From sequence record MZ234049.1: a stretch of DNA of 44,293 nt. One strand, 5' to 3'. Shown piece after piece: positions 10,385 to 40,802 of the stretch. The notes below the pieces were generated by a model, which was given only the letters and a program-made list of their open reading frames with translations, searched no databases and was not told where the DNA came from. Source of the DNA: Escherichia phage vB_EcoP-UTI89UKE2. A program made the position numbers and the translations under genes. Every line of letters starts with the position of its first letter. The first letter of the stretch is position 1.

Positions 10385-10406
10385 ATTTACTGGACACTAT
10401 AGAAGG
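10385..10406 (+). promoter_or_regulatory. phage RNAP promoter (ATTTACTGGACACTATAGAAGG)
   Basis: Exact match to the consensus recurring in this genome; SP6-type core CACTATAGAAG. Confidence 0.8.
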
Positions 10407-17352: not shown

Positions 17353-17481
17353 ATGGAGATGCTTGAGATGATTCTCAAGCCTTCTTCTCCGAAGGTGACT
17401 AAGACTCACGAAGAATTAATCGTAGATGAAGTGAAGCGTTACATCATGGATTGTGTCAGAGCACAACTGGTGGTCCAATGA
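17353..17481 (+). CDS. small ORF (42 aa)
   Basis: RBS GAGGG then ATG at 17353; its stop overlaps the next ATG. Confidence 0.35.
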   Translation: MEMLEMILKPSSPKVTKTHEELIVDEVKRYIMDCVRAQLVVQ

Positions 17482-17939
17482 TACGTCCAGCTTCCTTCCT
17501 AGATATTCCTGAGATTATAAACCTTGGGAATAAATATGTGGAAGAGGAAGTCAAGGTTGTAGCCCACCACTCAGCCTCATGGAATGCAGAACAAAGTGCA
17601 CATAACCTTTGTGCATCTCTTAGTAGAGAAGATTTATTCCTATGGGTGGCTGTAGATGAAGGGCAGATTGTAGGGTTCCTGTGGGCTGGCTATCACGAGT
17701 TGGCCCCTTGGACACCTGTAAGGGTTGCCTCTGACATTCTCTTTTACATTATACCAGAGAAGCGAGGGACACTACTCGGTATGCGTCTTATCAAGGCTCT
17801 TAAACAATGGGCTAATGAAAATGAATGCTCTGAGGTTCGCCTGTCTATCGCCTCTGGTATTAATGAAGAACGTGTCGGACGTATGTATAAGCGACTTGGC
17901 TTTGAACCGTTTGGCACTGTGTACAACCTGAAGTTCTAA
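17478..17939 (+). CDS. GNAT-family N-acetyltransferase
   Basis: N-terminus MIRPASFLDIPEI, acetyl-CoA binding motif IIPEKRGTLLGMRLI, C-terminal YKRLGFEPFG. Confidence 0.6.
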   Translation: MIRPASFLDIPEIINLGNKYVEEEVKVVAHHSASWNAEQSAHNLCASLSREDLFLWVAVDEGQIVGFLWAGYHELAPWTPVRVASDILFYIIPEKRGTLLGMRLIKALKQWANENECSEVRLSIASGINEERVGRMYKRLGFEPFGTVYNLKF

Positions 17940-20706: not shown

Positions 20707-21909
20707 ATGAGCACCCCGAATAACCTGACCAACGTTGCAGTCTCCGCTTCCGGCGAGGTAGACAGCCTTCTCATTGAGAAATTCAATGGCAAGGTAAATG
20801 AGCAGTACCTGAAAGGTGAGAACATCATGTCCTACTTTGATGTTCAGACTGTTACTGGTACTAACACTGTAAGCAACAAATATTTGGGTGAAACCGAGTT
20901 GCAGGTTCTGGCACCGGGACAGTCTCCGGCTGCAACTTCTACTCAGGCCGATAAAAACCAACTGGTAATCGATGCCACTGTTATTGCTCGTAACACGGTT
21001 GCTCACCTGCATGATGTACAGGGTGACATTGATAGCCTGAAGCCGAAGCTGGCTACTAACCAAGCGAAGCAGCTGAAGAAGATGGAAGATGAAATGCTGA
21101 TTCAGCAGATGCTGCTGGGCGGTATTGCCAACACTCAGGCTAAGCGTACTAATCCGCGTGTTAAAGGCCATGGCTTCTCTGTCAACGTAGAAGTTGCAGA
21201 AAGTGAAGCACTGGTCAACCCGCAGTATGTAATGGCGGCTGTAGAGTTTGCTCTTGAGCAGCAGCTTGAGCAGGAAGTAGACATCTCTGATGTAGCTATC
21301 CTGATGCCGTGGCGCTACTTCAACGTACTGCGTGATGCAGACCGTATCGTTGACAAGAGCTACACCGTTAGCCAGTCTGGTGCAACCATTCAGGGTTTTG
21401 TTCTGTCTTCTTACAACTGCCCTGTTATCCCGTCTAACCGCTTCCCTAAATTCTCTGCTGGTCAGAAACATCACCTGCTGTCAAATGAAGACAACGGTTA
21501 TCGTTATGACCCGACTGCAGAAATGAATGGCGCTATCGCTGTACTGTTCACAGCTGACGCTCTTCTTGTTGGTCGTTCAATCGATGTAACCGGTGATATC
21601 TTCTATGAGAAGAAAGAGAAGACCTATTACATTGACACCTTTATGTCTGAAGGTGCAATCCCTGACCGTTGGGAGGCAGTGTCTGTAGTTACCACCAAGC
21701 GAGAGACAAATGGCACGCCTACCACTACTGCAACTCAGGCCGCACAGCATACTCAGGTTCTGAACCGTGCACAGCGTAAGGCTGTCTACGTCAAGAACGC
21801 TGCTCCGGCTGCCGCTGCTGCAAACCTGTCAGCTGAAGACTTGGTTGCTGCTGTTCGTGCTGTCATGGCTAATGACATTAAGCCGACTGCAATGAAGCCT
21901 GCTGAGTAA
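20707..21909 (+). CDS. major capsid protein
   Basis: 400-aa ORF with strong RBS AGGAGG, own promoter and downstream terminator; codon usage typical of a highly expressed gene. Confidence 0.9.
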   Translation: MSTPNNLTNVAVSASGEVDSLLIEKFNGKVNEQYLKGENIMSYFDVQTVTGTNTVSNKYLGETELQVLAPGQSPAATSTQADKNQLVIDATVIARNTVAHLHDVQGDIDSLKPKLATNQAKQLKKMEDEMLIQQMLLGGIANTQAKRTNPRVKGHGFSVNVEVAESEALVNPQYVMAAVEFALEQQLEQEVDISDVAILMPWRYFNVLRDADRIVDKSYTVSQSGATIQGFVLSSYNCPVIPSNRFPKFSAGQKHHLLSNEDNGYRYDPTAEMNGAIAVLFTADALLVGRSIDVTGDIFYEKKEKTYYIDTFMSEGAIPDRWEAVSVVTTKRETNGTPTTTATQAAQHTQVLNRAQRKAVYVKNAAPAAAAANLSAEDLVAAVRAVMANDIKPTAMKPAE

Positions 21910-31800: not shown

Positions 31801-32171
31801 AAGACCAAGATGAATATTTGGAAGAGAAGTTATCGCCTAAAGGGTTGGCCTTTGGTGCAATGGGTATGATGAGTACAACTGCTGTATTTAGTCTAGGTGG
31901 AGATTTCTTAGGTGGCCTAGGTGTTCTACCTTCTGAGTTAGTACAATCCCGTTATGAGGCTGGCTTTCAGACTAAGGGTTTGATAGACCAAATACCACTA
32001 GTAGGTGTTGGTCAAGATGCATATCGTTTAGCAGATTCTATAACTAAATATGCAGAGGGTGATACAGAAGGTGTAGATGTGGCACGTAGGGCTTTACGCT
32101 TAGTGCCTCTAACTAATGTAATAGGAATCCAGAACGCATTGCGTTATGGCTTAGATGAACTGGAGGATTGA
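28863..32171 (+). CDS. large internal virion protein (1102 aa; gp16-like core/ejection protein)
   Basis: RBS GGAGG; size and position. Confidence 0.8.
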   Translation: MEQDIKTNWAGYVQSTPEPFSIEAAPVSAPTIRQRNELQEQVLEAKADADILGAVGAAFQNEWLAFGGKRWYDRATADFTPQPDFEIQPEQREALRFKYGTDMMQTITEGVRSEDELNFRIQNADEDLERNKRIAQAGWVGSVATIGAAVLDPVGWVASIPTGGAAKVGLVGRAVRGAIAAGVSNAAIESVLVQGDMTRDLDDIMVALGSGMAMGGVIGAVARGRATKLSEQGDDRAASIVRSADAGDRYVRAVADDSIGAMRVKGEEVLTEGAFDVSSKGEDLLKTLQREGNAIDMTPRRWAGTLSALGTVVHSSQDASVRGLGARLFESPQGLGMQKASASLMQNTNLNRLKSADMNRFNDGFDLWLKENNINPVAGHTNSHYVQQYNEKVWEAVRIGMDESTPKSIRMAAEGQQAMYREALALRQRSGEAGFEKVKADDKYMPDIFDSMKARRQFSMHDKEDIIELFSRAYQNGSRKVPKEVADDIARAQVNRVADATLTGQLSFEKAMSGQTKAEYEALMRKAGFSDEEIEKMVEALDNKETRDNISNRAKMSLGLDVTQEYNGIRMRDFMNTNVEELTDNYMKEAAGGAALARQGFSTYQAALNAIDLVERNARNAAKDTKAHAQFEAESAKIRQSEPDYKKAQEKIEELKKRLKLKEKDEAAGLAIDEEIRQMREGLRLIMGKSIDSNPQDLSTKMLRRGRDITGVLRLGQMGFAQLGELANFMGEFGIAATTMALGKQFRFTSKALRNGDGFFRDKNLAEVERMVGYIGEDNWLTTKGARPDEFGDVTTVRGMMAHFDQSMNSIRRAQTNLSLFRMAQGSLERMTNRQIALSFIDHLEGKKIIPQKKLEELGLTQGFMTNLQKHYDANSKGSGLLGFDTMPYAMGETLANAIRRKSGLIIQRNFIGDEGIWMNKALGKTFAQLKSFSLVSGEKQFGRGIRHDKIGLAKKTAYGFALGSIVYAAKAYVNSIGREDQDEYLEEKLSPKGLAFGAMGMMSTTAVFSLGGDFLGGLGVLPSELVQSRYEAGFQTKGLIDQIPLVGVGQDAYRLADSITKYAEGDTEGVDVARRALRLVPLTNVIGIQNALRYGLDELED

Positions 32172-33133
32172 TGAGTTATACTTTCACAGAACATATAGCC
32201 AACGGTACGCAAGTAACCTATCCCTTTAGATTTGCTGGCAGGGATAAAGGCTATCTTCGTGCCTCAGATGTGATAGTGGAATCTCTTCAAGGTAACACTT
32301 GGATTGAGGTTACATCTGGCTGGCAATTAACTGGTACGCATCAAATCACTTTTGATGTAGCACCTGTTGCAGGTTTGAAGTTCCGTATTCGAAGGGAAGT
32401 ACAAAAGGAGTATCCATACGCTGAGTTTGACCGTGGTGTTACCTTGGATATGAAGTCTTTAAATGGTTCTTTCATTCATATACTGGAGATTACACAGGAG
32501 TTACTTGATGGGTTTTATCCAGAAGGATACTTCATTAAGCAGAATGTAAGCTGGGGCGGCAATAAGATTACTGACCTAGCTGATGGTGAGAATCCAAAAG
32601 ATGCAGTAAATAAGTCACAGCTAGATGCTATCGACAAGAAGCATACTGATTGGAACTCTGCACAAGATATAGAGATTGCTGGTATTAAGAGAGGAATGGT
32701 GTCTGGTGTATCTCATCGCACTATTCCTTGGTATATGGTCGCCTCCGGTGGAGAGCAAATCATTCGACCACCTTACTCATTTGATGATGCTATGGTGTTT
32801 ATAAACGGTGTATTCCAGCATGAACTAGCAGGTGCAGTATCAGTGGGGTATAATGTTATAACCCTGTCCGAGCCATTACAGGCTGGGGATGAAGTTTATG
32901 TGCTTATCGGTAGTCGCTTAACCCCACCTACAAGTGCGGATACTATCCTCTTTACACAAGCAGTGAGTGAAGGTACACAATCTATCGACATTGTAACGGC
33001 TTTCCAACGTCTTGATGTATACTTGGATGGCCTGTATCAACCTAATAATGCTTATGAAATCGTAGGGTCTACTATCACTTTCAGTGAGCCATTACCTGAG
33101 TGTGTCGTAAGTATGAAGCTACAACTAGTGTAA
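32171..33133 (+). CDS. tail fiber/tailspike adaptor protein (T7 gp17 N-terminal domain-like)
   Basis: N-terminal MSYTFTEHIANGTQVTYPFRF resembles the gp17 tail-attachment domain; no long fibre shaft. Confidence 0.7.
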   Translation: MSYTFTEHIANGTQVTYPFRFAGRDKGYLRASDVIVESLQGNTWIEVTSGWQLTGTHQITFDVAPVAGLKFRIRREVQKEYPYAEFDRGVTLDMKSLNGSFIHILEITQELLDGFYPEGYFIKQNVSWGGNKITDLADGENPKDAVNKSQLDAIDKKHTDWNSAQDIEIAGIKRGMVSGVSHRTIPWYMVASGGEQIIRPPYSFDDAMVFINGVFQHELAGAVSVGYNVITLSEPLQAGDEVYVLIGSRLTPPTSADTILFTQAVSEGTQSIDIVTAFQRLDVYLDGLYQPNNAYEIVGSTITFSEPLPECVVSMKLQLV

Positions 33134-33337: not shown

Positions 33338-33620
33338 ACATGCAGCTACGGAAGATGAGGTTGGCATCCTGCATGGTGCTATTACCAAAATCTTTAATAA
33401 GAAAGCACAGGCAATACTGGACACTATAGAAGAAGACCCAGATGCAGCACTGCATTTAGTCTCTGGTAAAGACATTGGAGCTATGTGTAAGTGGGTTCTT
33501 GATAATGGTATTACCGCTACACCTGCTGCACAGCAGGAGGAGTCCAAGCTATCTAAGCGCCTCAAGGCTATCCGAGAGGCATCAAGTGGCAAGATTATTC
33601 AATTCACTAAGGAGGATTGA
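33321..33620 (+). CDS. terminase small subunit (gp18-like); GTG start after RBS GGAGG
   Basis: Immediately upstream of, and overlapping, the large terminase gene. Confidence 0.5.
   Translation: MSVHNKHAATEDEVGILHGAITKIFNKKAQAILDTIEEDPDAALHLVSGKDIGAMCKWVLDNGITATPAAQQEESKLSKRLKAIREASSGKIIQFTKED
33413..33435 (+). promoter_or_regulatory. phage promoter-like sequence (AATACTGGACACTATAGAAGAAG) inside the small terminase gene
   Basis: One mismatch to the consensus, embedded in coding sequence (encodes ILDTIEED). Confidence 0.55.
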
Positions 33621-35518
33621 TGGCTAAGGCAAGAGAATCACAAGCGGAGGCTCTTGCCAGATGGGAGATGCTACAGGAGTTACAGCAGACCTTTCCTTAC
33701 ACAGCGGAAGGTTTGCTTCTCTTTGCAGATACAGTTATTCATAACTTAATTGCAGGCAACCCTCATCTGATTCGTATGCAGGCGGATATCTTGAAGTTCC
33801 TATTTTACGGACACAAGTACCGCCTCATCGAAGCGCCTCGTGGTATCGCTAAGACAACACTATCAGCAATCTATACGGTATTCCGTATTATTCATGAACC
33901 ACATAAGCGTATCATGGTTGTGTCCCAAAACGCCAAGCGAGCAGAGGAAATCGCAGGTTGGGTAGTTAAAATCTTCCGTGGCTTAGACTTTCTTGAGTTT
34001 ATGCTGCCGGATATCTACGCTGGGGACCGTGCATCCGTTAAGGCGTTTGAGATTCATTACACCCTACGTGGTAGTGATAAGTCTCCTTCTGTATCCTGTT
34101 ACTCAATCGAAGCAGGTATGCAGGGTGCTCGTGCTGATATTATTCTAGCGGATGACGTAGAGTCGATGCAGAATGCTCGTACGGCAGCGGGCCGTGCCTT
34201 GCTTGAGGAACTGACTAAGGAGTTTGAATCTATCAACCAGTTTGGGGATATCATTTACCTTGGTACACCTCAGAACGTAAACTCTATCTACAACAACCTG
34301 CCTGCTCGTGGTTACTCTGTTCGTATCTGGACTGCGCGTTACCCTTCAGTAGAGCAAGAGCAATGTTATGGCGACTTCCTTGCACCTATGATTGTTCAAG
34401 ATATGAAGGACAACCCAGCACTTCGCTCAGGGTACGGGTTGGATGGTAATAGTGGTGCACCTTGTGCCCCTGAAATGTATGATGATGAAGTCCTGATTGA
34501 GAAGGAAATCTCTCAGGGTGCTGCTAAGTTCCAGCTTCAGTTCATGCTTAACACTCGCATGATGGATGCTGACAGATACCCATTACGCCTGAACAATCTA
34601 ATCTTCACCTCGTTTGGTACAGAGGAAGTCCCTGTGATGCCTACGTGGAGTAATGATTCCATAAACATCATTGGTGATGCACCTAAGTATGGTAACAAGC
34701 CTACGGATTTCATGTACAGACCTGTAGCTCGCCCATACGAATGGGGTGCTGTCTCCCGCAAGATTATGTATATTGACCCTGCGGGTGGTGGTAAGAACGG
34801 AGATGAGACGGGTGTAGCCATCGTATTCCTGCACGGCACATTCATTTATGTGTATCAGTGCTTTGGTGTACCTGGCGGATACCGAGAGTCGTCCCTGAAT
34901 CGCATTGTGCAGGCCGCAAAGCAGGCGGGTGTTAAAGAGGTATTCATTGAGAAGAACTTTGGTCATGGCGCGTTTGAGGCGGTAATTAAGCCGTACTTTG
35001 AACGAGAGTGGCCTGTAACTCTGGAAGAGGATTACGCCACCGGACAGAAAGAGTTGCGTATCATTGAGACGCTGGAGCCGCTCATGGCAGCCCATAGGCT
35101 TATCTTCAATGCAGAGATGGTGAAGTCAGACTTTGAGTCGGTACAGCACTATCCGCTTGAACTACGCATGTCCTACAGTCTTTTCAATCAAATGTCGAAC
35201 ATAACGATTGAGAAGAACAGCCTCCGGCACGATGACCGCCTAGACGCCCTGTATGGCGCTATACGGCAATTAACTTCTCAGATAGACTATGACGAGGTTA
35301 CACGGATTAATCGCCTCAGAGCGCAGGAGATGCGCGATTACATCCATGCTATGAATACACCTCATCTACGCAGGGCAATGCTATATGGAGATTACGGTAC
35401 TGAGCGAAGAGTGACCAACACTTCCGTAGCGATGCAGCAGCGAGTTTACGGGCAGAACTACCGAAATAAATCGGCAAGCAGAAATACACTTTCTGCAAGG
35501 ATTTCAAGGACTTATTAA
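33620..35518 (+). CDS. terminase large subunit (gp19-like)
   Basis: Walker A-like RGIAKTT ... ILADDVE (Walker B) and C-terminal nuclease region. The track start at 33617 is a TTG. Confidence 0.9.
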   Translation: MAKARESQAEALARWEMLQELQQTFPYTAEGLLLFADTVIHNLIAGNPHLIRMQADILKFLFYGHKYRLIEAPRGIAKTTLSAIYTVFRIIHEPHKRIMVVSQNAKRAEEIAGWVVKIFRGLDFLEFMLPDIYAGDRASVKAFEIHYTLRGSDKSPSVSCYSIEAGMQGARADIILADDVESMQNARTAAGRALLEELTKEFESINQFGDIIYLGTPQNVNSIYNNLPARGYSVRIWTARYPSVEQEQCYGDFLAPMIVQDMKDNPALRSGYGLDGNSGAPCAPEMYDDEVLIEKEISQGAAKFQLQFMLNTRMMDADRYPLRLNNLIFTSFGTEEVPVMPTWSNDSINIIGDAPKYGNKPTDFMYRPVARPYEWGAVSRKIMYIDPAGGGKNGDETGVAIVFLHGTFIYVYQCFGVPGGYRESSLNRIVQAAKQAGVKEVFIEKNFGHGAFEAVIKPYFEREWPVTLEEDYATGQKELRIIETLEPLMAAHRLIFNAEMVKSDFESVQHYPLELRMSYSLFNQMSNITIEKNSLRHDDRLDALYGAIRQLTSQIDYDEVTRINRLRAQEMRDYIHAMNTPHLRRAMLYGDYGTERRVTNTSVAMQQRVYGQNYRNKSASRNTLSARISRTY

Positions 35519-35538
35519 TTACTGGACACTATAGAAGG
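35517..35538 (+). promoter_or_regulatory. phage RNAP promoter (AATTACTGGACACTATAGAAGG)
   Basis: Consensus; starts immediately after the terminase stop. Confidence 0.8.
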
Positions 35539-35544
35539 AAGGCC

Positions 35545-35630
35545 CGGATAATAAGATAAATAATAGGTAATATATAGGTTAACCTAGGTTATATAGGTAT
35601 GCATTAGTATGGGTGTACTCCTGTACACCC
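35545..35630. repeat. phased TAGGT repeat array (4 copies, 9-11 bp spacing) followed by leader hairpin GGGTGTAC-TCCT-GTACACCC
   Basis: AATAGGTAATATATAGGTTAACCTAGGTTATATAGGTATG, then a perfect 8-bp stem at 35611-35630. Confidence 0.6.
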
Positions 35631-35677
35631 CCCTATTCCTTACTTCCTTACTATATTTACATAATAGGAGAGAGACA

Positions 35678-35953
35678 ATGGCTAATGATTATAGTAGTCA
35701 ACCATTAACAGGTAAGTCTAAGAGAAAGCAGGTACAACCTGTAAGTGAAGCACTAATGCTTCCGGTAATCTCGAAAGAGGAAGCTAGTAAGAAAAGCAAT
35801 GTTATTAATGATGCCACCAAATCAGGTAAACAGAAAGGGGCCATGGTATGCCTTGAAGTGGATGGTGCATTGAAGATTGCTATCGCTGTTGATGGCAAAG
35901 AAGATTCAGAGTGGAAGTTAGTGACAGGGGAACCCACTATTACCCCAGTTTAA
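35678..35953 (+). CDS. hypothetical protein (91 aa), paralog 1 of a tandem family
   Basis: RBS AGGAGAG then ATG at 35678. Shares SGKQxGAMV ... IAVA ... W with the next two ORFs. The track start at 35609 lies in the leader hairpin. Confidence 0.6.
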   Translation: MANDYSSQPLTGKSKRKQVQPVSEALMLPVISKEEASKKSNVINDATKSGKQKGAMVCLEVDGALKIAIAVDGKEDSEWKLVTGEPTITPV

Positions 35954-35971
35954 GAGAAGGAGGAAGATTAC

Positions 35972-36259
35972 ATGGCTAAATATGGTACTACAGGTTCTGT
36001 TACGGGTCAGGCTTTTCGAGTGAAAGCAGTACAAACTATTGCAACGGCAATTCCTATGCCTGTTGTTGCTGAAGAAGACCTTAAGAAGAAAGATCATCCT
36101 ATCAACATCAAATATTTATCAGGTAAACAGAGAGGTGCAATGGTTGTTATTTCGAGAGCGGACACAACCGTGCATATTGCTGTTGCACGTGGTAGTGAGC
36201 CCACCGACGTTTGGGATGTAACTGCTATGGACTCCCTTGCTGTTACACCAGGGGAGTGA
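35972..36259 (+). CDS. hypothetical protein (95 aa), paralog 2
   Basis: RBS AAGGAGG; motif KYLSGKQRGAMVVISRA ... HIAVARGSEPTDVWDV. Confidence 0.6.
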   Translation: MAKYGTTGSVTGQAFRVKAVQTIATAIPMPVVAEEDLKKKDHPINIKYLSGKQRGAMVVISRADTTVHIAVARGSEPTDVWDVTAMDSLAVTPGE

Positions 36260-36266
36260 TATTATC

Positions 36267-36944
36267 GTGTTAGGTATTACAGGACAACGAAGTGTAAGTC
36301 ATCAAGCTAAGGTTGCCACGGAAGTGGCTCCTATCGTTGATATCTCAGATGTGTCTGACGTTAACTCTTATCTAAACCAAAAGTACCTATCAGGTAAACA
36401 GGAAGGATATACTGTTCTGACTAAGAAAGGTTCACGTTATTCATTGTATGCTGCAACAGGTTCTAAGCCAGAAGATAAGTGGTTGCCTTTAGAGCAAGCA
36501 ACCCTACCTGATTCGAGTGCATTAGAGCTAATTGACACCATCGATGTTGAAGTTGCAAGTGCAAGCGACACAGTAGAGGTTAATGTAACCAAAGAGAGGA
36601 CTGTGTGCATCCAGACGCCTATGAAGGACTTAGCAGGTGATACAGTTTACCGGCAAGAATTGACTGCCAACATTAACCTTACCATTAATGAAAACGGAAG
36701 CCCAAGCGATACGGTTAAATTAAACATATCAATTCCTAATTTGCCAGGAACATCTAGTGGGTCTTACTATACAGTTGACAATGTGCTGTGTACTTCTTTT
36801 GGAGACGACAGTCCTGTTATTGCCAATATAGATGTCGATAAGGCTACCACTAACTTGATTGCTGTTACACTTCGTAAAGAGACGGCAACAGATATTAGGC
36901 TGTCTCTTGTAATTAGGTGGTCAATGCCAGTGGAGATTGTATAA
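36267..36944 (+). CDS. hypothetical protein (about 225 aa), paralog 3 with C-terminal extension; GTG start inferred
   Basis: Motif KYLSGKQEGYTVL ... YAATGSKPEDKWLPL; start codon uncertain (TTG 36237 or GTG 36267). Confidence 0.55.
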   Translation: MLGITGQRSVSHQAKVATEVAPIVDISDVSDVNSYLNQKYLSGKQEGYTVLTKKGSRYSLYAATGSKPEDKWLPLEQATLPDSSALELIDTIDVEVASASDTVEVNVTKERTVCIQTPMKDLAGDTVYRQELTANINLTINENGSPSDTVKLNISIPNLPGTSSGSYYTVDNVLCTSFGDDSPVIANIDVDKATTNLIAVTLRKETATDIRLSLVIRWSMPVEIV

Positions 36945-37288
36945 TGCTTAACAAATACTTCAAGCGTAAAGAGTTCGCTTGCCGTTGTGGGTGCGGTACA
37001 TCCACTGTTGATGCTGAATTACTGCAGGTAGTCACAGATGTGCGTGAGCACTTTGGTACTCCTGTTGTTATCACTTCTGGTCATCGCTGTGCTAAGCACA
37101 ATGCTAATGTAGGTGGAGCTAAGAACTCTATGCATCTTACTGGTAAGGCTGCTGACATTAAGGTACGAGGCATCTTACCTTCTGATGTACATAAGTACCT
37201 TACTGATAAGTACCAAGGCAAGTATGGTATTGGTAAATATACCTCCTTTACTCATATTGATGTACGTGACGGGTGTGCACGATGGTAG
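36944..37288 (+). CDS. endolysin, peptidase M15 family (zinc peptidase)
   Basis: FACRCGCG ... SGHRCAKHNANVGGAKNSMHLTGKAADI ... HIDVRDG; ATG overlaps the upstream stop. Confidence 0.8.
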   Translation: MLNKYFKRKEFACRCGCGTSTVDAELLQVVTDVREHFGTPVVITSGHRCAKHNANVGGAKNSMHLTGKAADIKVRGILPSDVHKYLTDKYQGKYGIGKYTSFTHIDVRDGCARW

Positions 37289-37862: not shown

Positions 37863-37885
37863 ATTTACTGGACACTATAGAAGAG
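37863..37885 (+). promoter_or_regulatory. phage RNAP promoter (ATTTACTGGACACTATAGAAGAG) for the tailspike module
   Basis: Exact consensus. Confidence 0.8.
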
Positions 37886-37964: not shown

Positions 37965-38300
37965 ATGGCTAAGTTAACTAAACCCAAGACAACGGGCTTA
38001 CTACATAGAGATACTGTACTAGCTAACTTATTAGATAATTTACTATCTAAAAGGCGTGTTACATTTGAAGGTGTAGCTCCAAGTGAAGATACTAAAATTG
38101 AGATAGAAGTACCTGTGACAGGAGACTTAGATTCTTCGTGGGCATCAATTGTATCATTAAGTACACCTGCACTTTGTACAGCTTGGATCACTAAACTGTC
38201 AGATACTACTTTAGAGATTCATGTATTTCATACAGCACAAGTAGAAATAGACATAGAGGTAGATGTTTACGTTCTAGGTAAGCACACTGTCAGTGCGTAA
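37965..38300 (+). CDS. hypothetical protein (111 aa) preceding the tailspike gene
   Basis: RBS GGAG then ATG at 37965. A 111-aa ORF at this position is recalled for K1E-type phages, where K1-5 carries a second tailspike instead. Confidence 0.6.
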   Translation: MAKLTKPKTTGLLHRDTVLANLLDNLLSKRRVTFEGVAPSEDTKIEIEVPVTGDLDSSWASIVSLSTPALCTAWITKLSDTTLEIHVFHTAQVEIDIEVDVYVLGKHTVSA

Positions 38301-38366: not shown

Positions 38367-40802
38367 ATGATTCAAAGACTAGGTTCTTCATTAGTTAAAT
38401 TCAAGAGTAAAATAGCAGGTGCAATCTGGCGTAACTTGGATGACAAGCTCACCGAGGTTGTATCGCTTAAAGATTTTGGAGCCAAAGGTGATGGTAAGAC
38501 AAACGACCAAGATGCAGTAAATGCAGCGATGGCTTCAGGTAAGAGAATTGACGGTGCTGGTGCTACTTACAAAGTATCATCTTTACCTGATATGGAGCGA
38601 TTCTATAACACCCGCTTCGTATGGGAACGTTTAGCAGGTCAACCTCTTTACTATGTGAGTAAAGGTTTTATCAATGGTGAACTCTATAAAATCACGGACA
38701 ACCCTTATTACAATGCTTGGCCTCAAGACAAGGCGTTTGTATATGAGAATGTGATATATGCACCCTACATGGGTAGCGACCGTCATGGTGTTAGTCGTCT
38801 GCATGTATCATGGGTTAAGTCTGGTGACGATGGTCAAACATGGTCTACTCCAGAGTGGCTAACTGATCTGCATCCAGATTACCCTACAGTGAACTATCAT
38901 TGTATGAGTATGGGTGTATGTCGCAACCGTCTGTTTGCCATGATTGAAACACGTACTTTAGCCAAGAACGCACTAACCAATTGTGCATTGTGGGATCGCC
39001 CTATGTCTCGTAGTCTGCATCTTACTGGTGGTATCACTAAGGCTGCAAATCAGCGTTATGCAACAATCCATGTACCTGATCACGGATTATTCGTGGGCGA
39101 TTTTGTTAGCTTCTCTAATTCTGCGGTAACAGGTGTAACTGGTGATATGAAAGTTGCAACAGTTATAGATAAGGACAACTTCACGGTTCTTACAGCCAAT
39201 CAGCAGACCTCTGATTTGAACAATGCTGGAAAGAATTGGCACATGGGTACTTCCTTCCATAAGTCTCCATGGCGTAAGACAGATCTTGGCCTGATACCTC
39301 GTGTTACTGAAGTTCATAGCTTTGCTACTATTGATAACAATGGCTTTGTTATGGGTTATCACCAAGGCGACGTAGCTCCACGCGAAGTTGGTCTTTTCTA
39401 CTTCCCTGATGCTTTTAACAATCCATCTAATTATGTTCGTCGTCAGATACCATCTGAGTACGAACCGGGTGCTGCAGAGCCATGCATCAAGTACTATGAC
39501 GGTGTATTATACCTTATCACTCGTGGTACTCGTGGCGACCGACTAGGAAGCTCTTTGCATCGTAGTAGAGATATAGGTCAGACTTGGGAGTCACTGAGAT
39601 TTCCACATAATGTTCATCATACTACCTTACCTTTTGCTAAAGTAGGAGATGACCTTATTATGTTTGGTTCAGAACGTGCAGAAAATGAATGGGAAGCAGG
39701 TGCACCAGATGATCGTTACAAGGCATCTTATCCTCGTACCTTCTATGCACGATTGAATGTAAACAATTGGAATGCAGATGATATTGAATGGGTTAACATC
39801 ACAGACCAAATCTATCAAGGTGACATTGTGAACTCTAGTGTAGGTGTAGGTTCTGTTGTAGTTAAAGACAGCTACATTTACTATATCTTTGGTGGTGAAA
39901 ACCATTTCAACCCAATGACTTATGGTGACAACAAAGATAAAGACCCATTTAAAGGTAATGGACACCCTACTGATATATACTGCTATAAGATGCAGATTGC
40001 AAATGACAGTCGTGTATCTCGTAAGTTTACATATGGTGCAACTCCTGGTCAGGCTATACCTACTTTCATGGGTACTGATGGTATTCGCACTATTCCTGCT
40101 CCACTTCACTTATCAGGAGAGGTAGTTGCCGCAGATATGACTGTCGAACACCTTACCTTGAAGGCAAGTACAAGTGCTAATATTCGCTCAGAGATGCTGA
40201 TGGAGGGTGAATATGGGTTCATTGGTAAGACTATACCAACGGATAACCCAACCGCCCAACGTGTTATCATCTCTGGTGGAGAGGGTACAGCAGCAGATAC
40301 CGGTGCGCAAATTACCTTACACGGAGCAGGTTCTAGCACTTCTAGACGCGCAGTATATAATGCCAATGAGCACTTGTTCCAAAGTGGAGCTATCATGCCA
40401 TACAATGATAACGTGTATCCTGCTGGTGGCCCTCGTAATAGATTCACTACTATCCATCTTACAAGTGACCCTATTATTACGTCGGATGCCACTCATAAGT
40501 ATGGATCACAAGGTATTGATGAGAGTGTACTAAAGGCATGGGGTAAGGTTAGCTTCAAGCAGTACAAGTTGATTGGTGAGATGTCTCGTGGTGTGCACCA
40601 CACTCACTTTGGTGTATTGGCACAAGACATTGTAGCTGCTTTTGCATCCGAAGGGTTAGATGCAATCGACTTCGGCATTGTCTCCTTCGAAGAAGGTCAG
40701 TTTGGTGTTAGATATAGTGAAATCTTAATCTTGGAGGCTGCTTATACTCGCTATCGTTTAGACAAGTTAGAGGAGATGTATGCCACTAATAAAATCAGTT
40801 AA
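38367..40802 (+). CDS. tailspike endo-N-acetylneuraminidase (endosialidase) with C-terminal intramolecular chaperone domain
   Basis: 811 aa from ATG 38367 (RBS AAGGAGG). Sequence recognised from memory as K1-phage endosialidase, including the C-terminal block ending YATNKIS. Confidence 0.88.
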   Translation: MIQRLGSSLVKFKSKIAGAIWRNLDDKLTEVVSLKDFGAKGDGKTNDQDAVNAAMASGKRIDGAGATYKVSSLPDMERFYNTRFVWERLAGQPLYYVSKGFINGELYKITDNPYYNAWPQDKAFVYENVIYAPYMGSDRHGVSRLHVSWVKSGDDGQTWSTPEWLTDLHPDYPTVNYHCMSMGVCRNRLFAMIETRTLAKNALTNCALWDRPMSRSLHLTGGITKAANQRYATIHVPDHGLFVGDFVSFSNSAVTGVTGDMKVATVIDKDNFTVLTANQQTSDLNNAGKNWHMGTSFHKSPWRKTDLGLIPRVTEVHSFATIDNNGFVMGYHQGDVAPREVGLFYFPDAFNNPSNYVRRQIPSEYEPGAAEPCIKYYDGVLYLITRGTRGDRLGSSLHRSRDIGQTWESLRFPHNVHHTTLPFAKVGDDLIMFGSERAENEWEAGAPDDRYKASYPRTFYARLNVNNWNADDIEWVNITDQIYQGDIVNSSVGVGSVVVKDSYIYYIFGGENHFNPMTYGDNKDKDPFKGNGHPTDIYCYKMQIANDSRVSRKFTYGATPGQAIPTFMGTDGIRTIPAPLHLSGEVVAADMTVEHLTLKASTSANIRSEMLMEGEYGFIGKTIPTDNPTAQRVIISGGEGTAADTGAQITLHGAGSSTSRRAVYNANEHLFQSGAIMPYNDNVYPAGGPRNRFTTIHLTSDPIITSDATHKYGSQGIDESVLKAWGKVSFKQYKLIGEMSRGVHHTHFGVLAQDIVAAFASEGLDAIDFGIVSFEEGQFGVRYSEILILEAAYTRYRLDKLEEMYATNKIS

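Follow-up and report, generated by a model that had tools for sequence, protein, structure and literature searches.

Three consecutive genes of Escherichia phage vB_EcoP-UTI89UKE2, a K1E/SP6-like coliphage (Vectrevirus), here called c1, c2 and c3, probably encode late accessory proteins of the virion that are trimeric and most likely stand on the outer face of the T=7 capsid, with the longest of them, c3, serving as a short head fibre or adhesin. The window analysed was a stretch of 44,293 nucleotides (sequence record MZ234049.1). A sequence-only reading of this DNA had picked out three open reading frames of 91, 95 and about 225 aa in positions 35678-36944, between terminase and lysis genes, and both the coordinates and the placement were confirmed, with all three frames co-directional (Table 1).

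Table 1. Features of the c1-c3 locus and its surroundings (positions are those of the window)
Feature	Position	Strand	Description
adaptor	32168-33133		carries tail attachment domain PF03906
large terminase (TerL)	33617-35518		T7-type; 5' flank of the triplet
phage RNA polymerase late promoter	35520-35539	+	SP6/K1-5-type; exact match to TACTGGACACTATAGAAGGA
leader hairpin	35611-35630	+	RNA element; 8-bp stem, GGGUGUAC-UCCU-GUACACCC
c1	35678-35953	+	ATG, 91 aa; K1-5 gp41 / SP6 gp42 / Kp7 gp45 type; anchor module only
c2	35972-36259	+	ATG, 95 aa; K1-5 gp42 / SP6 gp43 / Kp7 gp46 type; anchor module only
c3	36267-36944	+	GTG, 225 aa; long paralogue
c3 anchor module	36267-36494	+	aa 1-76
c3 linker		+	aa 77-86
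c3 beta-sandwich knob	36525-36941	+	aa 87-225
M15 endolysin	36944-37288	+	Pfam Peptidase_M15_3 1.1e-32; PHROG 894 endolysin; outside the c1-c3 family

A shared module of about 85 residues

The three proteins are paralogues, as the sequence-only reading had claimed. In BLASTP comparisons c1 and c2 are 35% identical (E=9e-14), while c3 matches c2 at E=8e-9 and c1 at E=6e-4. Each of the proteins also has a match to PHROG 2725 (c1 3.4e-38, c2 1.9e-41, c3 3.2e-16), so that the similarity is statistically significant in pairwise and profile alignment. Moreover, c3 matches PHROG 32357 (1.8e-119), and the best-scoring lineage profile for c1 is the c1-type HMM, at 141 bits. The core motif noticed earlier coincides with the conserved core of the family, in which N45, S50, K52 and W81 (c2 numbering) are invariant among 64 diverse members. 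The family motifs TG(Q/K)xxR, N..(L)SGKQ.GA, W and TP are all present in the c1-c3 alignments, and the likeness reaches the N-terminus as well (phi-TGQxxR), a part absent from the earlier motif. For c2, whose homologs at 50-96% identity fall into over 100 clusters, an AF2 model (pLDDT 68) shows an N-terminal arm (residues 1-30) that is disordered but highly conserved, followed by a small alpha/beta domain (31-85).

Scans of c1-c3 and 64 family members gave no Pfam or NCBIfam match to the shared module, searching the PDB by sequence, with the single proteins and with two profiles, gave chance-level matches only, and a Foldseek search of BFVD turned up mainly members of the family that are themselves uncharacterised. 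A haloarchaeal virus VP4 (E 0.44), an S-layer protein (0.34) and MCM21 (0.11) were considered as PDB relatives and rejected as noise. The module is one without a Pfam family and without a solved structure.

Homologs in the Kp7 virion and exchangeable C-terminal modules

Klebsiella phage Kp7 carries the same short-short-long triplet in the slot from TerL to endolysin (gp45-47, ON148527.1). Identity is 43% between c1 and gp45, 46% between c2 and gp46, and 31% between c3 and gp47, the last for the anchor alone. The Kp7 annotations name gp45 and gp46 'minor capsid protein' and gp47 'minor capsid protein with Ig-domain', a label used by depositors who have cryo-EM data on Kp7, and all three proteins were identified by mass spectrometry of gel bands from purified virions (preprint, bioRxiv 10.1101/2024.05.19.594906). 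The earlier suggestion of a virion-associated family is thereby borne out in a homologous phage. PDB entry 7y3t (seven 363-aa MCP chains), taken as the Kp7 capsid solely from its near-identity to the MCP of the window and its equal chain length, has no chain for gp45-47, which are therefore either unmodelled or not ordered on the shell. Beyond the Kp7 preprint, literature searches on gp41/42 of K1E, K1-5 and SP6, on Molineuxvirinae cryo-EM, on SP6-like virion proteomics and on the Kp7 capsid found no structural or functional study, and no virion proteomics was found in the literature searched for the window phage, K1E or K1-5.

The C-terminal extension of the third copy had been read as a diversifying part of the host-interaction type, and across relatives it does prove to be variable and exchangeable. 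In c3 the knob fold resembles distal fibre knobs, with low scores and 5-8% identity, and a Pfam/NCBIfam scan of this domain gave no Ig match. Ig domains were found in Kp7 gp47, where the domain matches the PDB decoration proteins 8zvi (6e-17) and 5lxk (2.8e-16), and in 2 of the 32 extension-bearing family members scanned. Other relatives join the anchor to Pfam Collagen (P0210, 1e-13, whose gene stands third behind TerL on an SP6-like contig), to the Sf6 needle knob PF16532 (1.7e-30 and 5e-43), to a coiled coil (P0263), or, in P0253 only, to a segment that matches the C-terminal part of the phi29 head-fibre profile PF11133 at 26.5 bits against a gathering cut-off of 24.6; c1-c3 themselves gave no match to that profile. 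The collagen stalk in a relative is also followed by a knob. Ig, needle-knob and collagen modules are found on tail proteins too. A protein of 970 aa with nine matches to the columns of the C-domain profile (P0203) was set aside as irrelevant, being a repeat protein without the anchor.

Three of these modules, namely collagen, the needle knob and the stalk of the head fibre, exist obligately as trimers. Of the 143 cluster representatives listed at 50% identity, from which those already found by earlier searches were excluded, 31 have exactly three tandem anchor modules per chain and none has more. The fused three-module proteins occupy the same slot after TerL, and in P0188, P0211 and P0214 the third module is followed by a single C-terminal beta domain. 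The fusions of the anchor to collagen, the Sf6 knob, the head-fibre segment and coiled coil, together with the three tandem repeats, are indirect signs that the shared module is probably a trimeric anchor.

Placement of such trimers on the capsid, as opposed to the neck or tail, is suggested by the depositors' label for Kp7, its single source. It is possible, if unlikely in our judgement, that these trimeric anchor-plus-fibre proteins sit instead at the periphery of the portal, adaptor or nozzle, in the manner of whiskers or side fibres. Such a position would agree with the match of the Kp7 gp47 Ig domain to 'neck whiskers protein gp24' (9occ, 1.8e-11) and to Ig-bearing tail proteins, with the presence of a tail-needle knob among the anchor-fused modules, with the resemblance of the c3 knob to tail-fibre tips, and with the lack of such chains in 7y3t. 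On the other hand, the depositors, who have cryo-EM data, call these minor capsid proteins, there is a relative with a phi29 head-fibre segment, and the tail attachment domain of the window, PF03906, belongs to a different protein, the adaptor; the anchor of c1-c3 has no similarity to this domain.

Three lineages in a fixed order

The slot holding TerL, c1-c2-(c3) and endolysin is the same in the window, K1-5, mutPK1A2, P3a, Koku, CrRp3, Kenya-K30, M186, SP6 and Kp7, and the three genes form distinct orthologous lineages that keep the same order in Vectrevirus, Zindervirus, Ulipvirus and unclassified Molineuxvirinae. This constancy across genera contradicts the local gene duplication proposed earlier; on these comparisons the duplication is ancient, not local or recent. 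Relatives both close and distant have the frames, and their absence from close ones, which would have spoken against real genes, was not observed. Copy number across relatives is only partly constant: c1 is followed by c2 in 34/34 SP6-like loci, but c3 is present in only 8 of 22 unbiased loci, with c1 and c2 alone in the other 14, and K1-5 lacks it. By this count c1 and c2 are core genes and c3 is an optional third lineage.

Judged by dN/dS (0.19-0.41 for c1, 0.18-0.5 for c2), c1 and c2 are under purifying selection. Between the window and mutPK1A2, c1 and c2 fall to 49% and 61% identity while c3 and the MCP (20707-21909 in the window) stand at 94% and 96%. As far as these alignments go, diversification has two components: c3 exchanges modules, and the c1/c2 pair is replaced by other alleles. 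The divergence of c1/c2 beside a near-constant MCP and c3 would fit proteins that dock independently of one another on a partner that is itself conserved. In a Raoultella phage whose tailspike differs, c3 is 97.8% identical, and c3 is therefore not the primary specificity determinant. The nearness of the tailspike, once taken as a hint to function, is incidental; a separate promoter, at 37866, serves the tailspike module.

The same counts bear on the composition of the trimer. An obligate c1:c2:c3 heterotrimer, to which each protein contributes one chain and c3 the only knob, would mirror the fused proteins, which have exactly three modules and in three cases a single beta domain, and would suit the fixed short-short-long gene order. 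We nevertheless think it quite improbable: most of the unbiased loci (14/22) have c1 and c2 only, the collagen, needle-knob and head-fibre modules on c3-type proteins require three identical chains, c3 holds at 94% where c1 and c2 diverge, and an attempt to map the fused repeats onto c1, c2 and c3 in order yielded no consistent assignment.

A late transcription unit shared with the endolysin gene

The ATG of c1 is preceded by AGGAG, 8 nt upstream, and c2 has a strong ribosome-binding site (AAGGAGG). The stop codon of c3 overlaps the endolysin start at 36944, and the endolysin is translationally coupled to c3. An annotated 31-aa ORF (35613-35708) was dropped in favour of the c1 ATG at 35678, as was a 114-aa reading of c1 from 35609, because the ATG at 35678 has a ribosome-binding site and is the start kept in relatives. 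A frameshift fusion of c2 and c3 was also considered; no slippery site is evident.

The promoter that the sequence-only reading had placed at 35517 is real and begins at 35520. The window holds 8 copies of the phage-RNAP promoter, where chance would give 0.01. The copy at 35520 is identical to the one at 10388, and every relative that was aligned keeps a promoter ahead of the triplet. The next match lies at 37866, with none between, and a simple scan of the + strand found no terminator-like site between the two positions. The 35520 promoter would drive c1-c2-c3 and the lysis genes as a late operon. The 'structured leader' claimed earlier comes down to one conserved 8-bp hairpin, present in both the MFE and centroid folds, while the leader as a whole folds no better than shuffled sequences (z=+0.55). 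The position of the hairpin is constant across genera and its stem sequences differ (Koku, SP6/Kenya-K30, Kp7). It is a candidate processing, stability or pause site. The KAW1A4500 annotation calls it a 'putative terminator'; no U-run follows the hairpin.

Sharing a transcription unit with the endolysin gene, and overlapping its start, could also be read as a sign that c1-c3 are non-structural late proteins of the adjacent lysis cassette, such as regulators or accessory factors of endolysin, holin or spanin. This is very improbable given that the Kp7 homologs occur in purified virions, that what relatives carry as C-terminal modules are domains for extracellular display or of fibres, and that c1-c3 have no membrane segments and no lysis-family matches. 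Finally, there is next to no chance that the proteins are acetyl-CoA acetyltransferases (thiolases), as PHROG 2725 and RefSeq name them, since only the inherited name speaks for it and the label is unsupported and indeed refuted by both sequence and fold: thiolases are proteins of about 390 aa with N- and C-terminal domains and catalytic cysteines, c1 and c2 (91-95 aa) are far below that size, no Pfam/NCBIfam thiolase match was found for c1-c3 even at E<=1 or for any of 64 members, and there is no structural match to any thiolase.

Proposed role and significance

We propose that the anchor combines an N-terminal arm that is intrinsically extended (phi-TGQxxR...P-V-V) with a small alpha/beta domain (N..(L)SGKQ.GA...W...TP), and that anchor trimers would dock on the virion via the conserved arm and the SGKQ loop. 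In this arrangement c1 and c2 would be bare anchors, and the c3 anchor would bear a projecting beta-sandwich knob of ~140 residues, producing a short head-fibre-like appendage. In place of this knob, relatives have Ig domains, a knob on a collagen stalk, a needle knob of the Sf6 type, a segment of the phi29 head fibre or coiled-coil fibres. The proteins may reinforce the capsid and/or adhere weakly, in a secondary role, to glycans on the cell surface or in the environment, with c3 as the putative adhesin; primary receptor recognition would not be among their roles. A more ambitious version, which we regard as doubtful, would make the module an undescribed trimeric capsid-anchor fold whose three lineages occupy the three non-equivalent three-fold environments of the T=7 shell (20 icosahedral, 60 hexamer-only and 60 pentamer-adjacent), with c3 as a plug-and-play head fibre bearing a secondary adhesin knob. 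If this were true, the adsorption of therapeutic K1 phages, or their retention at mucosal surfaces, would be influenced by the c3 adhesin, and c3 would be a natural display scaffold.

SP6/K1E/K1-5-like phages are therapeutic and model capsule-targeting phages in which conserved late genes have been misnamed as an enzyme in RefSeq and PHROGs. Reading the products as virion anchors would correct the annotation in hundreds of phage genomes and predicts unmodelled components of the particle. The C-terminus of c3 would be a naturally swappable display position that could affect adsorption, stability or immunogenicity and could serve phage display or engineering.

Comparison with known systems

The knobs compared with c3 were those of the R1/R2 pyocin fibre foot (6cxb/6cu2), AP22 gp53 (4mtm), reovirus sigma1 and the adenovirus fibre heads; unlike tail-fibre knobs, c3 has neither a fibre shaft nor a tail-attachment domain. 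T4 Hoc and T5 pb10 display Ig domains as Kp7 gp47-type members do, but they are monomers at hexamer centres and are unrelated to c1-c3 in sequence. Lambda gpD, phage L Dec and P74-26 gp87 are accessory proteins of ~90-110 aa with an extended N-terminal arm on T=7 HK97-fold capsids. The window proteins are like them in size, N-arm and accessory role, although for the window proteins the trimer is an expectation from sequence; no fold shared with a solved decoration protein of the gpD, Dec or beta-tulip type was found. In PhiM1, alpha-claw and alpha-paw are tandem paralogues with a common capsid-binding motif, one of which adds a projecting arm with a proposed role in adhesion (PMC11440229). The logic of that pair is like that of the window, but its members are helical dimers at two-fold axes without sequence relation, and the alpha-claw proteins of PhiM1 and HRP29, which also differ in gene position, were rejected as relatives.

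The phi29 head fibre gp8.5, a dispensable protein, has a like architecture, in which a small base at the N-terminus binds the virion and a trimeric stalk leads to a distal part; the anchor module of c1-c3 is unrelated to it in sequence, and c3 of the window has almost no stalk. Nearer to the window, gp41/gp42 of K1-5, gp41/gp42 of K1E and gp42/gp43 of SP6 are orthologs of c1/c2 (92% DNA identity between the window and K1-5), and SP6 gp44 has a c3-type anchor without the C-terminal knob. Kp7 gp47 has an Ig-like domain where c3 of the window has its 140-aa beta-sandwich knob, and in slot, order and motifs Kp7 gp45-47 are like c1-c3 and are their true homologs.

Three paralogous late genes

The three consecutive ORFs picked out by the sequence-only reading (c1, c2 and c3) were found exactly as described, and their paralogy was borne out both by pairwise BLASTP, in which every pair far exceeded what a single comparison would give by chance (c1-c2, E=9e-14 with 35% identity; c2-c3, 8e-9; c1-c3, 6e-4), and by a single PHROG profile that matched all three proteins. 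The homology spans the whole of c1 and c2 and stops at about residue 80 of c3. From N- to C-terminus, this shared module of about 85 residues reads as a phi-TG(Q/K)xxR arm, N..(L)SGKQ.GA, W and a terminal TP motif, with N45, S50, K52 and W81 (c2 numbering) invariant among 64 diverse family members. Both c1 and c2 are under purifying selection (dN/dS 0.18-0.5). In another frame, the GenBank record annotates a CDS (UTI89UKE3_043) across the leader hairpin and the beginning of c1; it has no homologue support and probably reflects a gene-calling error.

The region is identical (100%) to that of Escherichia phage vB_EcoP-UTI89UKE3 (MZ234050.1) and 96-98% identical to a handful of further phages. 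It belongs to Vectrevirus, in the SP6/K1-5/K1E group of the Molineuxvirinae, and the neighbouring genes are consistent with this assignment. Behind the second late promoter lies a 111-aa ORF of PHROG 15083 (unknown function) for which no Pfam match was found; it occupies the slot of the second tailspike in K1-5, immediately 5' of the endosialidase gene, and could represent a remnant or a small protein that fills an adaptor site.

Coordinates of the features discussed (window unless a contig is named)
Feature	Coordinates	Details
GNAT-family N-acetyltransferase	17451-17939	162 aa; Pfam Acetyltransf_1, 7e-10
Major capsid protein (MCP)	20707-21909	400 aa
Large terminase (TerL)	33617-35518	
Late promoter	35520-35539	TACTGGACACTATAGAAGGA
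Leader hairpin stem	35611-35630 (whole hairpin)	GGGUGUAC/GUACACCC
CDS UTI89UKE3_043	35613-35708	31 aa
c1	35678-35953	91 aa; Shine-Dalgarno 5'
c2	35972-36259	95 aa; Shine-Dalgarno 5'
c3	36267-36944	225 aa, GTG start; Shine-Dalgarno 5'
M15 endolysin	36944-37288	Pfam 1.1e-32
Small membrane/spanin region		among genes around the triplet
Second late promoter	37866-37885	
PHROG 15083 ORF	37965-38300	111 aa
K1-type endosialidase tailspike	38367-40802	
SP6 gp44	L010 3045-3290	81 aa
Two fused triples	L016 8746-9591 and 9992-11167	one bare, one with C-terminal beta domain
Two long fibre-type members	L017 491-1942 and 1942-2403	consecutive
Leader hairpin stem, Koku		GAGGGUAC/GUACCCUC
Leader hairpin stem, SP6		GGGAGGUA/UACCUCCC
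Leader hairpin stem, Kp7		GGGUACUC/GAGUACCC

The triplet does have its own promoter, an exact copy of a consensus with 8 occurrences in the window, where 0.01 would be expected. The structured leader was only partly recovered: taken whole, the leader is no more structured than usual (z=+0.55), and what stands is one perfect 8-bp hairpin about 75 nt 3' of the promoter. Its position is kept across Molineuxvirinae genera (nine loci, among them the window and SP6) with different stem sequences, the differences being apparently compensatory. A pyrimidine-rich tract rather than a U-run follows the hairpin, a candidate processing, stability or pausing element. One record annotates it as a terminator, a poor fit for a hairpin just 3' of a promoter and without a U-run.

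Separate lineages and mosaic replacement

Local duplication, by which the triplet had been explained, did not hold up: HMMs built separately for the c1, c2 and c3 types sorted every gene in every relative cleanly into one type. In 34 of the 34 SP6-like loci examined, c1 is followed by c2; none of these loci carried more than three copies, and c3 was present in 8 of the 22 loci recovered through c2 alone. K1-5 has only c1 and c2 (gp41, gp42). SP6 has three members (gp42, gp43 and gp44), and because gp44 is a c3-type anchor without the extension (78 bits with the c3 HMM), SP6 too has the triplet. At an identity of only ~31%, the long form of c3 turns up again in Vectrevirus, Ulipvirus, Zindervirus and unclassified Klebsiella phages.

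Comparison with phage mutPK1A2 (L003 and L020) revealed a sharp mosaic boundary between 35678-36259 and 36267-36944. Identity to mutPK1A2 is high for MCP (95.7%), c3 (94.2%) and the endolysin (86%) but low for c1 (48.9%) and c2 (61.1%), so the c1/c2 pair is swapped as a unit, independently of c3, and behaves as an exchangeable allele cassette. Divergence in c1 falls in its C-terminal half; the N-arm and SGKQ loop stay conserved.

Fused and extended forms of the module

An exhaustive profile search returned 312 clusters (50% identity) at E<=1e-3. Among the 143 listed representatives, which exclude those found by earlier searches, 71 were short single modules, 30 were single modules with a C-terminal extension, 31 had exactly three modules arrayed in tandem on one polypeptide (in 3 of these another C-terminal domain follows), about 11 had two detectable modules at three-module length, and none had more than three. 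Where genomic context exists, fused proteins occupy the same slot, right 3' of a T7-type large terminase (L015). The gene pairs of L016 and L017, two metagenomic T7-like contigs, parallel the bare-plus-extended arrangement of the window.

The extensions on single modules are very diverse: the beta-sandwich of c3, Ig domains (Kp7 gp47, P0268, P0140), a Pfam Collagen stalk plus knob (P0210, whose gene is the third behind TerL on an SP6-like contig), an Sf6-type tail-needle knob (PF16532, 1.7e-30 and 5e-43), a segment of the phi29 head-fibre family (P0253; PF11133, above gathering score) and long coiled coils (P0263). Collagen helices, needle knobs and head-fibre stalks all form trimers. Taken with the recurring count of exactly three fused modules, these extension types speak for a trimer whose base would be formed by the shared module.

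Neither a Pfam or NCBIfam family nor, by sequence or profile search, a PDB relative was found for the module. In AlphaFold2 models from family alignments, c2 consists of an N-arm (1-30), disordered though strongly conserved, and a small beta-alpha-alpha-beta-beta-beta domain (pLDDT 68). The c3 model has the same small domain at 20-76, a flexible linker and an all-beta C-domain at 87-225 (pLDDT ~80; 76 overall), whose best matches, with weak scores, are distal knobs of fibres, a suggestive resemblance.

Virion evidence from Klebsiella phage Kp7

Kp7 (Molineuxvirinae; ON148527.1) carries the same triplet between TerL and endolysin. Its gp45, gp46 and gp47 align with c1, c2 and c3 and are named 'minor capsid protein' (gp45, gp46) and 'minor capsid protein with Ig-domain' (gp47) in GenBank. 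SDS-gel bands of purified Kp7 virions were assigned by mass spectrometry to 'minor capsid proteins (gp32, gp45, gp46, and gp47)', which the T7-like phages Kp9 and Kp11 lack (bioRxiv 10.1101/2024.05.19.594906). Likewise named, gp32 is a 68-aa ORF between gp31 and the portal gene; the GNAT protein of the window, just 5' of its portal gene, is the counterpart of gp31.

PDB 7y3t, with seven chains of a 363-aa MCP, is read here as the Kp7 capsid, since its sequence nearly equals that of the window MCP and its chains are as long as the Kp7 MCP. No chain of gp45, gp46 or gp47 is present in it, and the case for capsid placement therefore comes from the depositors' label rather than from a public model. 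Relative to this closest solved homologue, the MCPs of the window and mutPK1A2 are longer at the C-terminus by an Ala-rich tail of ~37 aa.

Discussion

On the best-supported reading, c1, c2 and c3 are structural accessory proteins, expressed late, with a trimer-forming virion anchor in common. The products of the core genes c1 and c2 would be bare anchors, and the optional c3 lineage would project a knob as a short head-fibre-like appendage. PDB 'decoration proteins' (8zvi, 6e-17; 5lxk, 2.8e-16) are among the homologues of the Kp7 gp47 Ig domain, as are a neck-whisker protein and Ig-bearing tail proteins; attachment at the neck or tail rather than the shell is unlikely, at perhaps one chance in five. 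An obligate c1:c2:c3 heterotrimer is somewhat less probable still, as c3 is often absent, evolves independently of c1/c2 and, in c3-type proteins, bears homotrimeric modules. A lysis-related, non-structural role for these neighbours of the endolysin gene is very improbable. The name 'acetyl-CoA acetyltransferase', which RefSeq (K1-5, SP6, mutPK1A2 and others) and PHROG 2725 have spread onto c1/c2 orthologues without a supporting domain, fails every test and is almost certainly wrong.

The window genes are orthologues of known yet uncharacterised SP6-group genes, and for their nearest characterised relatives the 'minor capsid' label is confined to a single GenBank record and a single preprint. 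New here are the division of the family into three lineages, the modular and fused architectures, which favour a trimeric anchor, the mosaic exchange of the c1/c2 pair, and the demonstration that a widespread enzymatic annotation is wrong. They would add to the known phage decoration or head-fibre proteins a set that is built on a structurally uncharacterised anchor domain. The c3 knob is not what primarily sets the host: a Raoultella phage whose tailspike is different has a c3 of 97.8% identity. By analogy with lambda gpD, phage L Dec, phi29 gp8.5, T4 Hoc and T5 pb10, and with the paralogous alpha-claw/alpha-paw pair of PhiM1, the three proteins may serve in capsid reinforcement, weak secondary adhesion or both.
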